From assembly GCA_965215885.1 (NCBI GenBank), contig CBDCEW010000095.1, positions 71,345 to 135,344 of the forward strand: a stretch of DNA of 64,000 bases, written 5' to 3'. The position numbers were made by a program, and so were the translations under genes. This document shows positions 1 to 6,927 of the stretch, one piece after another. The notes under the pieces are model-generated. The model had not been told where the DNA came from. It made no database searches and saw only the letters and a program-made list of their open reading frames with translations. Each line of letters starts with the position of its first letter. The first letter of the stretch is position 1. The stretch comes from Candidatus Moanibacter sp. (GTDB lineage: Bacteria > Verrucomicrobiota > Verrucomicrobiia > Opitutales > UBA2987).

Positions 1-450
1 GTAGCCGAGACCGATCACCCGGCATTTCGCCAAGAGGTAGCGACGCGGGTCCTCTTTCTTCAAGTTCGCTCCGGTGAAACCCATCGAAGTTTCCGCGTGG
101 GCCTGATAGATCGTCAGCCCTCCACGTATTTTCTCCAGCAAGTCGAAGTCGCCCGCCATCCACGCGAGGACACGCGGCTCGATCCGGGAAAGGTCGGCGA
201 TGAGGAGCTTGTGGCCTGGTCGAGCGATCAGGCAGCGGCGCGGATCGACACCGTGAAGCGGCTCTCGGTTGAAGTTCTGGAGATTGAGGCCGGCATCCCC
301 GGACCATCGACCGGTGGCAATCGCGCCGAAATACTTCAGCGAGAACGGGAGTGAGCCATCCGGTCGGCAACGGTCACGCATCGTCTCCAAGACCCGAAGC
401 ATACGATTCGATTTCCGCCAGTTTCGGATGTGTCGAATCCACGGAGAGCG
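1..450 (-). pseudogene. Phage-type family A DNA polymerase fragment (5'-truncated; continues off the left edge)
   Basis: Not in the ORF track. Manual translation (codons ending at base 1) gives ...LKYFGAIATGRWSGDAGLNLQNF...LIADLSRIEPRVLAWMAGD...RYLLAKCRVIGLGY, i.e. PolA motifs A and B. In-frame stop at 496-498, so the exonuclease part is missing. Confidence 0.85.
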
Positions 451-502
451 GCAAGACGGGGGCCAGTCTCGGTGCGGGTGGTGACTTTGGACAAGTCATC
501 GC

Positions 503-724
503 TTACCGGCGTCGAGGGTTGACGGTGCAATTCTCGTCCAGCGCGGCCCGGACCTTCTCCACGTCGAAGCGGACGAAGTGGCCGATCTTGACGTAGGGAA
601 TTTTCCGCTGGGCCTGCATCTGGCGAAGCCAGCGCAAGGACGGTCGGCTCTGTTCGTCGAAAAGGGCTTCGAGGAGCCCGTTGGCGTCAACGAGTTTCGG
701 TTGGGTGGGCAAAGGTGTTTCCAT
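503..724 (-). CDS. Excisionase/AlpA-like helix-turn-helix protein
   Basis: 73 aa; SLRWLR...KIPYVKIGHFVRFD pattern typical of MerR-like HTH excisionases. Confidence 0.7.
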   Translation of the reverse strand: METPLPTQPKLVDANGLLEALFDEQSRPSLRWLRQMQAQRKIPYVKIGHFVRFDVEKVRAALDENCTVNPRRR

Positions 725-736
725 CTTCGTAATTTA

Positions 737-937
737 TTAGAGTTTGGTGAAGTCGTCGGAGTGAATCAGGAGCCAGAAGCCGGGCCTGCCCTTCTCGGAC
801 AGGCGCAGCCGTTTCGCGTCACGGAGCGTGGTGGGCCGGAGCCCGTCACCGCCCGCGCGAGGCAAGCGGTGACAGGGCGACCCGTCGGCTTTATACCAGT
901 GCGTGGACTGGCTCTGATCTTTCTTGAGAACTGCCAT
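737..937 (-). pseudogene. N-terminus of a phage exonuclease-like protein fused to an unrelated C-terminus
   Basis: HWYKADGSPC...RPTTLRDAKRL resembles the start of phage PD-(D/E)XK exonuclease-like proteins, then switches to SEKGRPGFWLLIHSDD after about 46 aa. Confidence 0.5.
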
Positions 938-953
938 GATCAGCGAACTCCGC

Positions 954-1487
954 TTAGAATGGGCCGTTCTCCTGCGGATCGACCGCGGGATTCCATGCCT
1001 GCTGCGGCGCAGCCGGCGGAGCGGGAGCCTGAGCTTGGGCGAAGGCTTCAAGCGGGAGCACCTGCGGCTTGAGCTGGTCGATGACCGGAGAAATGCCGAC
1101 CATGTTGGCGTAGGTCTTCGTCCCCTCGCGGCTTTCCCTGTGGGCCACGGTAATCATCGCGCCCTGGCCGCGAAGTTCGCAGTAGTCCCAACCATACTTC
1201 GGCGGATGGCCGAGCCAACTGGTCAGCAATTTGAACAGGTTGCTCTTGGGCGATCCGCTGATGCGGAACTCGAAGGTCTGGACCTTGTAGGTCTGGCCGT
1301 CCTGACCGCGGAACCCGAAAAGGAAGCGCGTAACATCGAGCTTCTCGATTTCCTGCGGGTTCTCGAATTTCGGACGATCAACACCAAACTGGTCCTGAAC
1401 GTCGAGACAGGTGGCAACGAATGTGCCAGCGGGAGCGAGGGCTCCGGTGTCGAAGCCAGAGGCTTCGGGTTCTTTCATAACTGCCAT
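954..1487 (-). CDS. Phage single-stranded DNA-binding-like protein
   Basis: APAGTFVATC...KSNLFKLL core, P/A/Q-rich linker and acidic/aromatic tail (DPQENGPF); replication-module context. Confidence 0.55.
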   Translation of the reverse strand: MAVMKEPEASGFDTGALAPAGTFVATCLDVQDQFGVDRPKFENPQEIEKLDVTRFLFGFRGQDGQTYKVQTFEFRISGSPKSNLFKLLTSWLGHPPKYGWDYCELRGQGAMITVAHRESREGTKTYANMVGISPVIDQLKPQVLPLEAFAQAQAPAPPAAPQQAWNPAVDPQENGPF

Positions 1488-1621
1488 GATTATCTATTTT
1501 CATCAGGCAGACCCTACCTTGCTCGTGCTTCATGCCGTTGCTTCTCGGTGAATCTGCCTTCACCTCGAAGGCGCTACATGACGCGTAGCGAGAGCTACTT
1601 TTCGCGTAGCGGGGGATTTTT

Positions 1622-3745
1622 CTAACTATTTTTCACCGGATTGGGGCTTCGTGGACGCGTGCTCCAAGAGGTCGGAACCTCGGGCTGGTATCTTAGCACG
1701 GCCCCGAGATCTATCGCATCACGGAGATGATCGGCAAAAACGCGATCATCCTTACCGATTTCCTCGATGGTTCGGTTAACGCTGTTCCGAACACTGTCGC
1801 GAAGGTTCTTCCGCTCATCCCTGGCTTTGCGGATTCTTCCGCCCAAACCAACGGCTCGACCGATTTCCTTTTCGATCACGGCTACCTCCTCCTCAAGCTC
1901 AGTCACGCGGCCGACATCATTGTTTGTCTCGGCCTCGCGCCTTTCTTCAGGGATCTCGCCTAGCCTCTCGCGGTATTTCGCTAGCGCCTTTTTATCAACC
2001 ACGTCGCCAAGATCCCCCAACTGCGCTCTGTCGGTGATCGAAAAGCCCTCGGCGATTTCCTCGGCGTCGATCTGGCCCGCCTCAACATCTTCGCAGAAAC
2101 CGATATTCAGTTCTGCCGCCACATCATAAACGGAAAAGGAACGATCGGGTCGCCCGAGAAGGAACTGGAGATACTCACAACCTTTTCTGTGTTTCTGGAT
2201 CAAGAGCGGCTTGCCTTTGTTGAACCGAATCTGCCAGACGTTTCCGCGCTTGTAGAAAAAGTTGGGGGGCTCTTCGTCGGTGCCGACTGCCGGCAGTGAC
2301 GTAACGAATCCGGACTCGTAGACGATCCGGAGAAGTGAATCACCCGGGAGCTTGCGTGTTCGGATGTCGCCGGCGTGTCTGGCGAGCAGAATGTCGACTG
2401 CTTTACGGACCTCCCGAGCATGGCGCTTGTGTAGTTCAAAAAGCCGCTCGGCACTGCCTTGACGGTCGCCCGGCAAACAAGCCACTGCACGAAGCAACTC
2501 AGGATACTTGTCGATGAATTGAACGACGGAATCGACCTGCTCAATCTCATGGGCTCGTTCAAGATACGCAGCCGATAAAATCTTGTCGTCGTCCTTGGGC
2601 CGCTCACCGAGGAATATGTCATGCTTATAGTGGGTAGCCGGATCGTATTCTTCTGCATCCGCTGCGACAATCGCTATGCGCCTATCGATGCATTGTGAAC
2701 AAGTGCCGCAATGAGTTAGTTCCAGCCTTCGCACCCTCACGTGGGTGCAACTCACCGAGGTTGTGATTACTTCGGGAATCCCGGCCTCAACTATCAACCT
2801 GATGACATCCGCTTTCGTTTTCCAGAGGAAGGGATTCTCAACGGTGAACTGCTCGTCTGAGAGCAGCGTGAAAAGTTCCTGAAACCCCTCAATAACGCGG
2901 GGGTGCGTCGTTCGGGTGGCACGGCTCCCGATCACCTGAGCGCAGATTGGCAGATTCAGGCTGACGACTCCGTTCTCGTAAAAGCGAATACTGTTCAGGC
3001 CAAGCATCTTGGCAATGGTTGCACCGAAGCAGGCAAAAAGGAAAGAGCGGGTTCTCTGGGTATACTCTCGGGCGCGAGAGTTTCTCTTGCTTGCCCGGAC
3101 ACCGAGATGAATCGGTGCGAGACGGTCGCCAGCCTCTTGACTCAAGGCATCGTGCAACTTCCGCAAAATTGTGTTGTTCTTGGTCGTTGGCTTGTGCGTT
3201 ACCAAAACGACCTTGCGGCGCTGGCGAATCACCTCATCGACGGCTCCACCAAGTGAATCGAGACCACCGGAAAACAGGATGACCTGTTCCGGTGGCGCGG
3301 AATTTTGTGGGTTTTCATCAAATTTGAGGTAAGTCTGAAAAGCAGGCGGATTCGCCGCTTGAACGAATTTGAAGGTGAACCGGTCGTCGGACAGGAAGCC
3401 GAGTAAACCGGAAAGACACTCGATGACTTCCGGCCTTTTCCAGACCTTCAGTTCGCGCACTGGAACGTGGAATGTGAAGTTGCGCCGCCAAGCGCCTCCG
3501 AAGCTGTCAACGTCTTGGTTGGTGCGCCTGATCAGTTGGTCGGCGCAGTAAACGTAGACGGCGATTTCAACCAGGTCATGGAGCTGGCTCGGGATTTTTC
3601 GAAGTAAACGTTCGTCGATGTCCTCGATGCGCAGAACAACATTCTCGTCTTCATCACCGCCCCAGAGATTGAGGTTGATTTCTTTATCGGGGCCGTTGCC
3701 TGGCTTGGTCTTTTCACCGCAGTAAATGGAAAAGTCACGATGCAT
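1622..3745 (-). CDS. QueC-like (QatC/Cap9-type) PP-loop ATPase with C-terminal regulator-like domain
   Basis: FSGGLDS PP-loop, QRTRSFLF, ENG, TRTTHP, NPF..KTK and SC...HCGTCSQC zinc site; about 210 extra C-terminal residues. Confidence 0.85.
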   Translation of the reverse strand: MHRDFSIYCGEKTKPGNGPDKEINLNLWGGDEDENVVLRIEDIDERLLRKIPSQLHDLVEIAVYVYCADQLIRRTNQDVDSFGGAWRRNFTFHVPVRELKVWKRPEVIECLSGLLGFLSDDRFTFKFVQAANPPAFQTYLKFDENPQNSAPPEQVILFSGGLDSLGGAVDEVIRQRRKVVLVTHKPTTKNNTILRKLHDALSQEAGDRLAPIHLGVRASKRNSRAREYTQRTRSFLFACFGATIAKMLGLNSIRFYENGVVSLNLPICAQVIGSRATRTTHPRVIEGFQELFTLLSDEQFTVENPFLWKTKADVIRLIVEAGIPEVITTSVSCTHVRVRRLELTHCGTCSQCIDRRIAIVAADAEEYDPATHYKHDIFLGERPKDDDKILSAAYLERAHEIEQVDSVVQFIDKYPELLRAVACLPGDRQGSAERLFELHKRHAREVRKAVDILLARHAGDIRTRKLPGDSLLRIVYESGFVTSLPAVGTDEEPPNFFYKRGNVWQIRFNKGKPLLIQKHRKGCEYLQFLLGRPDRSFSVYDVAAELNIGFCEDVEAGQIDAEEIAEGFSITDRAQLGDLGDVVDKKALAKYRERLGEIPEERREAETNNDVGRVTELEEEVAVIEKEIGRAVGLGGRIRKARDERKNLRDSVRNSVNRTIEEIGKDDRVFADHLRDAIDLGAVLRYQPEVPTSWSTRPRSPNPVKNS

Positions 3746-4523
3746 CAGGCTCAGCTCTTTTCTTCATTTCGGAGCGCATTTTCTCCATTGCAACCCGACC
3801 GAAGTCCTTCGATTTCTGTTTCGAGATGTGTCCGTTGTTCTCGTAGTGAATCTTGGAAAACCAATCAGCGCTGAAACGTTGAACGATCTTGGACGCCTCG
3901 CGGCAATGCGTCTCCAAGGCTTTCTTGAACTGAGCAACCTGGTTCATTGTGGCGAACCGCTGGCCTTCTCCGATCTGAGTGCCGATGGTTTTGGATAGGA
4001 AGTAGTCGAGAGACCTGTTGGTCAGGTTGCTGAAGAAGGAACGCGACAACCGACCGAAGGCCGCAGGTTTTCCCAGATCGGCCAAGGCTGTCTCTAACTC
4101 ATGTGCGGATAGCGTAAGCAGCGTGCCGTAACGGTCGTTCAGTTGTTCGATCACAGCAGAGACAAGCGCATTCTGCGCCAGCTCTCCAAAATCCGAGCTT
4201 TTCCCCTCAGCTGATACACCCTTGTCGAGCGCTGATACGATAGCGAGCGCAACATCGGTGAGTGTGGTATGGTCGGAGAGCTTGATTCCGAGCGCCTCAA
4301 AATGAGCGACTGGATCGTCAGACCTGGCAGCTACCGCTAACTGAGTCATTAGGTCAACGGACTCCGCGAAACCACGGTCATTCTGGATTACCGCGAACGC
4401 CTTGTCGGCGGCCTGCATCGTTGCACCGGCCACCTTAGACACATCCGCACCGTCAGCGATGTAGCGGACGATTTCTTTCCACGCCCGAGTCTGCGGGAGC
4501 GTTCCTAGTCTTACGTGGCCCAT
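3735..4523 (-). CDS. Helical hypothetical protein, coupled partner of the QueC-like enzyme (N-terminus MGHVRLGTLP)
   Basis: 262 aa clean ORF; stop overlaps the QueC-like start by 11 nt. Confidence 0.75.
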   Translation of the reverse strand: MGHVRLGTLPQTRAWKEIVRYIADGADVSKVAGATMQAADKAFAVIQNDRGFAESVDLMTQLAVAARSDDPVAHFEALGIKLSDHTTLTDVALAIVSALDKGVSAEGKSSDFGELAQNALVSAVIEQLNDRYGTLLTLSAHELETALADLGKPAAFGRLSRSFFSNLTNRSLDYFLSKTIGTQIGEGQRFATMNQVAQFKKALETHCREASKIVQRFSADWFSKIHYENNGHISKQKSKDFGRVAMEKMRSEMKKRAEPDAS

Positions 4524-4596
4524 GAATGGTGATGCGGGCGCTCTGTCCCTCCATAAACATCAAACTTCCGCTTGAAGCCTTGTCAAAGCGTTTAAC

Positions 4597-4878
4597 TTGC
4601 TTAGAGGCGTTATGATGATGAACTTCGGGGATGTCGGTCGGATGCTTTTTGAGCGGCAAGAGTTCAGTGGGAGGTGTGTCACCCGCTACCTCGAAGTGAA
4701 GTCGATGTCGGTTGCCTTCGAGAACGACGTCGAGTTCGTCCTCAAGGAAGCGAAACTGAACTACGAGAAGCATTTCCGCGTCGATCCATTCATCTGTGAC
4801 TTCATCCTGACGTTAGACCGACGACGCTTCGCCATTGACTGCAAATATAACGTCAACCGCGACTGTAACCGCACCTAA
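4597..4878 (+). CDS. Short PD-(D/E)XK nuclease-like ORF, probably a fragment
   Basis: CDF...FAIDCKY motif; only 93 aa. Confidence 0.35.
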   Translation: MLRGVMMMNFGDVGRMLFERQEFSGRCVTRYLEVKSMSVAFENDVEFVLKEAKLNYEKHFRVDPFICDFILTLDRRRFAIDCKYNVNRDCNRT

Positions 4879-5055
4879 GTGGCTGTGAAGCTCCTGCGGG
4901 AGAAGGGAGCAACCTTTCAGGCGCATCAATCGAACTGAGCAACAAGAGGTCTCCCATCTCCGGAACCTGGTCGCGAAAGAGACGCGCGAGGGCAGGCCCG
5001 GAATCTGGCTGTCACAGAGCCCAAGGTATGCCGTCAATGCGGCCTCGCTCCCCAG

Positions 5056-6927
5056 CGGCCTGACAAGATCGAGCAGGAAAAGGGCCTCAAGCGGTGGGCG
5101 CGATCAAGCTTCTGGCTGGATGACCGCTACACGACCAACGCCGAAGAAAAGCTGCCGGAAACATGGGTACCGGGAAATCGGCCAAACCTTAACCAGATGC
5201 ACGCGAAAGCGGCTGCGGAGATCGACAGGGACGTTGTGAAGGCACCTCTGATCGACGAAATCGGCAGAGCAAAGGAATTGACCCGTGGCGCATCGACAAG
5301 CGGAGTGCGGACCCACACCCTGCCATACAAGCCGAAGGACGTGGAGGATGACGGCGAGTTTCACTATGTCATCCTCGGCCCAGACGCGGCCTCCGAATCG
5401 GGCAAGCCAAGCCCGGAGGCAACACGCTTCCTCAACGAAACAACGAGCTCGGAGAAACCTCGTGTCTTCCGCAATGCCGTGATCCTGCTGACTCCAACCA
5501 AAGACGGTGTCGAGCTCGCCAGGAATGCGATCCGCGACTACCTCGCTTGGGAGCAGGTCCGCACTGAACTCAAGGATGAGGAAGACGGTGGCCAGGTCGA
5601 TGTGGCGCGGATGCAGACGCTGCTAATTCGGGTGAGAGAATCGCAGGGCAAAATCGCCAACGCGATCTATCAGGCCTACAGCACGGTTGTCACCGTAACC
5701 GAGAAGAACGAAATTCAGGCGTTCAGGATTTCCATCAGCGACGATCCCCATTTCCAGATCGTCAAGAACGACCAACGCTCACGCATCAAGGACAGTGCCA
5801 TCAACGCGGAGTCACTGTTGCCGGGCGGCCCCTACGACTTGTGGACCGATGGCCAGACGGCGAAACGCGTCAAGGATCTCACGGGCGCATTCGCGCAATT
5901 GCCGCGTCTCCCGAAGATGCTCAAGGCAGAGACGATTCTCGATACGCTGGTCGACGGATGCCGGCAGGGAGCATTCGTCTTGAAACTGACCCGCCCCGAC
6001 GGGTCGAAGCGGACATGGTGGTTGAGCGAACCGGATGAAAACGCGCGGAAGGACGCGGCCCTGGATCTCGTTCTTCCCGAGTCGGTGGATTTGGCGGAAA
6101 TCGACCCAGCCTTGGTCGCCAAAGACGGCTTGGCCGGACTCTGGACAAGCGACGAGATCACCGTCCAGGACGCGCTCGCCTACTTCGAGGGAGGCAAAGT
6201 CGTCCAGATGAAGAAGGGCGACTATGAAGAGCCAATGATGATCCCAAAGGCCGGGAAAGCGGTCGTCCAGGAGGCGGTGAAACAGGCCGTGCAAAAGGGC
6301 AAGGTCTGGCTGGTTTCCGGGCCGACGAGCATTTATGGTGAGGAGGTTGCTCCGGGTATTCTCACGGCTGGTGCAGTGCTGTTGCCGCCACCTGAACCAG
6401 TAAGCGTCACCGAGATTCTACCCGAAGTGATTCCTGACGTATGGACGAATGTAGAGACGACCGCCCTCGCGATTGCGACCGCGCTCTCGCAAAAGGCTGG
6501 CAAGACGCTCCCGTGGAAGACCGTGGCCGATGTGATCAACCAAGCAATCAACAATCGCTACCTGATACTGTCGGAAGACTCCGGCCAGTGGCCCTGCGAC
6601 TTCTCGGGCGCTGGCAAGGTTGCATTAGAAGAGGCCAAGCAGGAGCCCATTAAGCCAGATGAAGTCCATGAAGGATCTTCAGGGCGAATCGCTGCCGTGT
6701 CGGTAACGTGTGAAGAAGCCCAAGCCCTTCTCGACGCCTTGGCCTATGAGGCCATCCCAGCTCTGCTGGAGATCAAAGCGAAAACGAGAATCGGGGTGAA
6801 GGTGACCGTTGGAATCGAACACGACCCGGAAACGAGCGAGATGACCGAGGAGGCTGCCGGAGAGATCGGAGACGCCGCAAAGTCGGCGTCCGATGATTTC
6901 AGGATTCTCTTCGAACAGAAAAACTAA
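5056..6927 (+). pseudogene. DUF499-family AAA+ protein, C-terminal part only
   Basis: Frame open from RPDKIE..GLKRW..WLDD..RPNLNQMH through DVEDDGEFHY, PRVFRNA, GGPYDLW, FAQLPRLPKML; no Walker A region. Confidence 0.7.

Follow-up and report, generated by a model that had tools for sequence, protein, structure and literature searches.

A QatBC-type gene pair with a fused winged helix as a candidate regulatory switch for early genes of prophage-type elements

Results

A gene pair at the head of an early operon

Two overlapping genes lie on the minus strand of a 64,000-nucleotide stretch of DNA from Candidatus Moanibacter sp. (contig CBDCEW010000095.1, positions 71,345 to 135,344), which was analyzed at its full length and is called the window here. 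The first encodes a partner protein of 262 residues (4523..3735, start MGHVRLGTLP). The second encodes an enzyme of 707 residues (3745..1622) and overlaps the first by 11 nucleotides. An earlier note on this DNA, made from the letters alone, had described both open reading frames (ORFs) as intact and had picked out the motifs SGGLDS, QRTRSFLF, and TRTTHP in the enzyme; all of this was confirmed. It had put the pair at one end of an integrated element. Set against the intact sister element L021, the pair proves to head a replication operon, so that the head of the element's early operon is the better description. The two proteins resemble QatC and QatB of qatABCD systems, and we favor the reading that this QatBC-type enzyme–substrate pair is a regulatory switch for the early genes of prophage-type integrative elements. 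The main features of the locus are listed here; papers are cited by PubMed Central number throughout.

3735..4523, minus strand: QatB-fold partner, 262 residues, MGH start, short N-terminal arm of about 9 residues ahead of the fold (predicted from VIA-align, hhalign, and a Gly2 census)
2303..3745, minus strand: QatC-clade pyrophosphate-loop (PP-loop) domain, residues 1-481 of the 707-residue enzyme (PADLOC and PDB matches, cluster-2 motifs, tree)
3254..3271, minus strand: SGGLDS pyrophosphate loop, residues 159-164 (motif reading and alignment)
2900..2917, minus strand: TRTTHP, with Thr-x-Thr at the place of the Tyr-x-Asp motif for 7-carboxy-7-deazaguanine (CDG) in Cap9 and QueC (sequence and tree set; PMC13279940)
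2690..2749, minus strand: four-cysteine zinc site, C333, C346, C349, and C352 (invariant in the enzyme alignment of 38 sequences)
1622..2290, minus strand: predicted OmpR/PhoB-type winged helix with a long helical-hairpin insertion, residues 485-707 (structural alignment of the model)
1573-1610, no strand: candidate operator, two palindromes GCTAC-N7-GTAGC with a 21-bp period (scans, shuffles, conservation in relatives)
1556..1572, no strand: short inverted repeat GCCTTC-N5-GAAGGC adjoining the operator, also present in several relatives

The enzyme groups with QatC and ends in a predicted winged helix

Enzyme residues 53-376 match the PADLOC profile of QatC (E 7.8e-57) and the solved QatC 9vlk in the PDB (E 1.9e-29). 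The canonical QueC profile TIGR00364 stays far below its cut-off (30.6 bits vs 150.3), and the earlier assignment to a defense-type rather than a housekeeping QueC stands. The enzyme misses the NCBIfam QatC equivalog cut-off (212 bits vs 280). The cluster-2 motifs, taken from PMC13329287 (SGGxDS, RxRxxxF, ExG, HP, PxxxxTK, and the four-cysteine zinc site), are invariant or nearly so in 38 enzyme sequences; these sequences share 34-62% identity and show no variation in the PP-loop, RxRS, HP, or zinc cysteines. In a quick maximum-likelihood tree of 52 rows without an outgroup, a 97% branch sets 12 canonical plasmid QatC proteins apart, and 39 MGH-linked enzymes group together at 95%. Judged by sequence, the enzyme belongs to the QatC clade and not to Cap9. 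The likeness to Cap9 proposed earlier did not hold up, because TRT replaces the Tyr/Asp motif for CDG. Among annotated phages there were only two QatC-like matches, both distant.

Residues 485-707 gave no Pfam or PHROG match and no Foldseek match at E 0.001. Their model (predicted local distance difference test, pLDDT, 78) was compared with 48,161 chains in VIA-align, and each of the 18 best matches is an OmpR/PhoB-type DNA-binding domain (Z 8.3-6.7, over 85-100 aligned residues), here split by the helical hairpin. A winged-helix tail was assigned in 125 of 132 complete enzymes, 102 with the long insertion and 23 of a short type, by profiles built from members of the same sets; the other 7 have no type. 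A profile search for tail diversity returned near-identical architectures only, among the best 120 of 3965 matches. Stand-alone short forms of the winged helix were found in 6 proteins, mostly fragments.

The partner reads as a remote QatB with a conserved Gly2

Searches with the partner sequence against Pfam, PADLOC, NCBIfam, PHROGs, and the PDB gave nothing useful. Its model (pLDDT 83) aligns to QatB 9y01_A over 209 of 215 residues (Z 11.8, root-mean-square deviation 4.1), with the next fold at 6.0. VIA-align warns that Z below about 13 can be common among helical proteins, so this likeness needs further lines of support. In hhalign, the partner profile scored 34.0 (E 3.5e-4) against 12 QatB sequences; controls reached at most 22.1 with 30 block shuffles, 16.3 with a reversed profile, and 29.0 with 16 unrelated families. 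The Atlas listed a QatB-bearing cluster at 0.88 for the partner, which is a lead only, and the Foldseek match to QatB is weak (E 0.17). QatB was absent from the listed rows of a wide fold search with the partner, which were headed by dynamin-like bundles (Z 7.0), taken to be common helical matches. Because of the fold alignment and a profile score above all controls, we read the partner, on model and sequence grounds, as a remote QatB rather than the new substrate class that had been suggested. Residue 10 of the partner model aligns to QatB residue 64, the start of the fold; the QatB tail takes up 63 residues.

The partner family comprises 1094 clusters at 50% identity. Among relatives from the best 150 of these clusters that cover the N terminus, Gly2 is present in 141 of 142 and His3 in 132. 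A second set, the best 120 of 168, has Gly2 in 115 of 116. Conservation of Gly2, one of the checks proposed for the pair, is thus observed. An MGH start in 147 of 149 loci and the Gly2 invariance in alignment A3 were set aside as circular, the sets having been chosen by that motif. A scan of viral contigs with the single partner sequence gave no match. One metagenomic protein, P0252, is a fusion of partner and enzyme to a further domain that shows phosphoesterase-like motifs (by eye); it lacks Gly2 and may be an assembly artifact.

A Bradyrhizobium plasmid carries another QatBC variant (L125:2327-4954), with an MGSG partner, a QatC-like enzyme with altered motifs, and then an ASCH-domain gene; it gave no QatA or QatD match.

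Linkage, predicted complex, and chemistry

At genome loci, the partner gene has an enzyme match behind it in 79 of 80 cases, in keeping with the linkage anticipated earlier; the exception lies at a contig end, and 2 of the 79 are broken. The same order was found in 7 of 9 phylum loci and in 56 of 60 viral loci, the remaining four of which lie at contig ends. At L104:9749-12116 a partner gene stands without a detectable enzyme gene, and a sigma-like early gene still follows. With profiles from 12 QatA and 12 QatD sequences, qatA or qatD was found at none of 149 partner loci (flanks up to 10 kb, some short). Canonical QueC, QueD, and KAP NTPase (QatA type) were likewise not found across the host genome, which is 90.3% complete. 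The earlier note had likewise seen no queD, qatA, or qatD beside the pair.

Co-folding of enzyme residues 1-481 with partner residues 2-262 gave an interface score (ipSAE) of 0.90, compared to 0.29 for the best control. Of pairs with solved structures, 116 of 157 reach the mark set for this score, as do 2 of 215 mismatched ones. At least 89% of contacts recur between runs, and the partner pLDDT is 86 or higher. The model interface takes in partner residues 2-11 and, on the enzyme, loop 261-279, neighbors of the zinc site, and helices 385-432, with residues 229, 279, 334, and 350-351 included. The QatBC interface uses the corresponding loop and C-terminal helices (PMC13279940). As to entry of the partner N terminus into the active site, a check proposed earlier, the model puts the N terminus at the active-site side, with no pair involving Gly2 among the listed contacts. 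Because QatBC is already solved, the model shows likeness, not binding.

The earlier note took deazaguanylation by QatC as established, which overstates the published record. A deazaguanylated (NDG) peptide is described in PMC13639016 by liquid chromatography–tandem mass spectrometry (LC-MS/MS), but not by intact mass, and it was not obtained in vitro. PMC13279940 calls the QatC reaction unresolved and not reconstituted, and PMC13376578 suggests a distinct QatC substrate. A PTPS-family gene (QueD type) is present in 46 of 57 carrier genomes, which led us to reject a general loss of QueD in carriers; none was seen in the other 11 or in the host genome.

A shared slot in prophage early operons

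In relatives, the neighbors of the pair are serine recombinase, DUF2924, LexA-type helix-turn-helix (HTH), sigma-like proteins, excisionases, AAA_24, nucleases, and primases. The pair sits ahead of xis/sigma early genes on prophage contigs, one of which (L180) has terminases downstream. Related elements were collected by DUF2924, from the best 80 of 177 matches and 56 of 57 others (one edge match dropped), to give 136 loci. The slot in these DUF2924-recombinase loci holds the pair in 32, one of six other families in 77, and something else in 16; 11 were too short. Pair and alternative family never occur together (0/136), the six families having been chosen by eye from the same loci. Separate repressor-like genes also occur in such elements, namely a LexA-type HTH and an HTH with an IrrE peptidase.

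Tails of five of the six alternative families link to winged helices, from strongly to weakly. F316a links to OmpR at 96-97% and to the short QatC tail at 95-96%, F730 to F227 at 86-90%, F343 and F227 to F316a at 35-59%, and F316b at 32% or less. The tail of F376 had no winged-helix match in this profile comparison. Reversed controls gave at most 7%, and the OmpR profile was built from 4 sequences.

Examples of the six families, none with a Pfam match above cut-off, lie at L188:3582-5699, L202:3572-5744, L307:3161-5556, L314:662-1693, L212:260-1390, and L234:2919-3602. Several seem to have short repeats of their own downstream and are candidate alternative sensors. A stand-alone LexA-type DNA-binding domain of about 85 residues precedes the partner in DUF2924 elements (L052:9705-9965, L032:219-476). 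In Burkholderiales-type elements, the block of HTH, recombinase, DUF2924, LexA HTH, and pair is inverted relative to the early operon (L143-L171 vs L142).

A candidate operator tracks the early promoter

Directly after the enzyme stop codon, the window reads GCTAC-N7-GTAGC-N4-GCTAC-N7-GTAGC. This tandem palindrome is a single match in the window, with none in 100 shuffles, and the sole perfect match in the genome. No sigma-70 consensus promoter was found overlapping it. In 45 of the 102 long-tail loci, the early operon lies beyond the recombinase genes, and the pair stands in inverted orientation at a distance of about 6 kb. In every one of these inverted loci the palindrome stands 107-114 nucleotides before the excisionase match, not behind the enzyme. 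In the other 57 the motif is directly behind the enzyme in 37 and absent in 20. Reduced for redundancy at 80% tail identity, the 45, 37, and 20 loci make 4, 9, and 15 clusters. The tandem palindrome was found at none of 77 non-pair slot loci and none of 22 short-tail loci. Short-tail loci have TGTCACA direct repeats instead (13 of 22), and in 11 of 22 one copy lies 17-18 nucleotides before a -10-like hexamer. Of 164 arms, 26 are non-complementary, which counts against an RNA hairpin. A terminator was rejected on account of these mismatched arms together with the location in inverted loci.

A reverse scan of viral contigs for the motif took in 80 loci of at least 120. The fusion was present in 24, part of the pair in 1, and the same helix without QatC in 3; the motif lies 21 and 57 nucleotides behind two of those three proteins. 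At L361, the same helix sits on a non-QatC N terminus and the palindrome follows. Some of the motif loci are chance coding repeats, and several resemble other phage promoters. The candidate operator thus tracks the helix type and the early promoter, and is not exclusive to the pair.

Other phage contigs (L353, L358, L386, L393, L398, L405, and L408) have the same tandem palindrome but not the pair; in some of them it seems to precede packaging or lysis genes (by eye).

The host element is partly decayed

Downstream of the operator, the early operon continues as follows.

954..1487, minus strand: early operon gene 1, single-stranded DNA-binding protein (SSB)/replication-initiation-like, C terminus lost (NCBIfam NGO0469 family, E 2.8e-13, below cut-off; 149/220 residues of the L021 homolog)
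740..937, minus strand: exonuclease and resolvase-like gene remnants (comparison with L021)
503..724, minus strand: excisionase-like HTH, intact (library matches and 72/73 residues of the L021 homolog)
1..450, minus strand: family A DNA polymerase, C-terminal half; primase and helicase come next, beyond the window

Judged against L021, the ruined neighbors of the earlier description include the SSB-like gene, the exonuclease (46/270 residues), the resolvase-like gene (21/120), and the DNA polymerase (only 302-625). The excisionase, primase (287/290), and helicase (376/379) are whole, and here the description does not apply. With a decayed element under the window copy, the output of the pair may here be partial or obsolete. 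Window 1-1610 has a 99% identical second copy on another contig (G000:C59, L333); its operator is a variant one, and upstream of it a transposase takes the place of the pair. Near-identical DNA occurs in 1 of 8 same-family genomes, and among 401 genomes from the phylum the partner gene is present in 15, host genome included. This patchy distribution fits a mobile element.

On the other side of the pair, a small unassigned ORF lies at 4576-4878 and an N-terminally truncated, ATPase-associated ORF at 4939-6927. The latter is divergent from the pair and matches positions 545-769 of 941 in PADLOC HmaC (E 7e-10).

Discussion

Computed folds, linkage, slot, and operator placement underlie the reading of the pair as a regulatory switch, which we consider probable; catalysis, coupling, activation, and trigger we infer. 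The QatB-fold partner would lose Met1 and dock on the QatC domain, with Gly2 predicted in the PP-loop pocket. By analogy, the enzyme would use ATP to ligate a carboxylate, whose donor need not be CDG, onto Gly2. The state of the complex would gate the fused OmpR-type winged helix. This helix would bind the tandem operator, a candidate site by co-variation, where the excisionase/replication operon has its promoter, and would most likely activate the early genes. The trigger would most plausibly be a phage- or stress-related metabolite. Winged helix, slot, and operator, all missed earlier, together move the likely role from defense to regulation. Of the minimal defense or regulatory system first proposed, the regulatory part is favored and the defense part has become less likely.

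Several observations weigh against a switch. The passing complex score may be memory of the solved QatBC, and the winged-helix Z of 8.3 is close to the level that the tool calls common. The motif is missing from 20 of 102 long-helix loci, the 45 inverted loci amount to only 4 clusters at 80% tail identity, and 52 of the 80 motif-bearing viral loci showed nothing of the pair, though flanks were short in 42 of these. Others would suit a minimal QatBC-like anti-phage system carried as prophage cargo, in which the winged helix would serve just for autoregulation or for bringing the complex to DNA; we think this rather unlikely. QatBC without A and D protects from lambda (PMC13279940). Two relatives have effector-type tails, one with phosphoesterase-like motifs (by eye) and one with a DpnII-type nuclease; the latter, on a Leptospira plasmid (L111:2704-5348), has an MGH partner and an enzyme fused to a DpnII/MboI-type nuclease (E 1.4e-10). 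Carriers L035, L070, L071, and L098 lie in defense-like neighborhoods, amid restriction or toxin–antitoxin-type genes and without an early operon. The pair is also intact though the element decays. A defense role is harder to reconcile with an operator that tracks the early operon and not the pair, with a slot common to non-Qat winged-helix proteins that are mutually exclusive with the pair, and with tails that are winged helices, not effectors, in 125 of 132 enzymes.

The switch might instead have the opposite sign: the fusion would repress the early promoter, and modification of the partner would lift the repression. Tandem palindromes are a typical form of repressor operator. Selection would favor keeping a repressor intact where the operon is decayed and possibly toxic, and elsewhere the genome has a second operon copy whose operator is a variant. 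PhoB-type activators have a half-site at the -35 position, and the short-helix half-site falls at just this place. Given this half-site, the lack of a consensus promoter over the window operator, and the separate repressor-like genes in these elements, we prefer activation and hold repression to be unlikely. Very unlikely, in our view, is a helix that acts as a constitutive or otherwise regulated activator on a QatB/C part serving as mere scaffold, with Gly2 used for docking without covalent modification. The unreconstituted QatC activity (PMC13279940, PMC13639016), the Gly2-free natural fusion P0252, and the host genome and 11 of 57 other carriers in which no QueD was seen would all suit a scaffold. 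The invariance of PP-loop, RxRS, HP, and zinc cysteines over 38 sequences speaks against a scaffold, and a missing QueD speaks only against host CDG as donor.

The regulatory-switch reading may have a wider form, which we offer tentatively. A widespread prophage class might wake through covalent modification of a protein N terminus, with the QatBC pair sensing a phage or stress metabolite and, through its fused activator, turning on the excisionase promoter. In this form the pair would be a single allele among interchangeable sensor–winged-helix modules, and QatBC systems at large would be sensors whose output can be exchanged (transcription, nuclease, phosphoesterase). The sensed metabolite is possibly a deazaguanine precursor from an incoming phage, as QueD was not seen in some hosts. 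A switch of this kind would let prophages be induced by a path other than cleavage of a repressor. The 2026 structure papers state the trigger and downstream action of QatBC as open. With its naturally fused DNA-binding domain and a defined site of 38 bp, the window enzyme offers a plain reporter read-out for this question, and the slot points to several unnamed regulator families.

We found no description of the MGH partner, the QatC–winged-helix fusion, or the operator in the open-access literature. Only about a third of cluster-2 genes adjoin qatA or qatD (PMC13329287), so the sequences of the pair may be in the supplement of that paper without comment. The database filing of many members as queuosine-pathway synthases is probably wrong.

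By gene content the pair is not a qatABCD member but a variant of the QatBC core, probably with a different, regulatory job. It shares with the QatB–QatC core the B-then-C order with overlap, the cluster-2 motifs, Thr-x-Thr, the QatB fold, and the N-terminal glycine (PMC13279940, PMC13376578, PMC13639016), as well as, in the model, an interface on loop 261-279 and C-terminal helices 385-432. It differs from qatABCD in lacking qatA and qatD. Its partner has MGH and a short arm, whereas QatB has MGTS and a long disordered tail. Its enzyme falls in a separate clade, with an extra winged helix, a prophage early-operon slot, and a candidate operator. Cap9–CdnD of type IV CBASS is alike in that a QueC-family enzyme acts on the N-terminal glycine of its partner, but Cap9 has about 185 residues, the Tyr/Asp CDG motif, and a CD-NTase partner (PMC13279940), unlike the 707-residue window enzyme with Thr-x-Thr and a QatB-fold partner. 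FseA of ICEMlSymR7A is likewise an element-encoded HTH activator that binds an inverted repeat at the promoter of an excisionase, rdfS, and works in a comparable way; its domains (DUF6499-DUF2285) are unrelated, its control is by quorum sensing and an antiactivator, and it has no enzyme–substrate pair (PMC10359603). OmpR/PhoB regulators share the fold of the C-terminal domain and, in the short-helix type, TGTCACA direct repeats, whereas the window protein has a QatC domain and not a receiver as its input, a long helical insertion, and a palindromic site.

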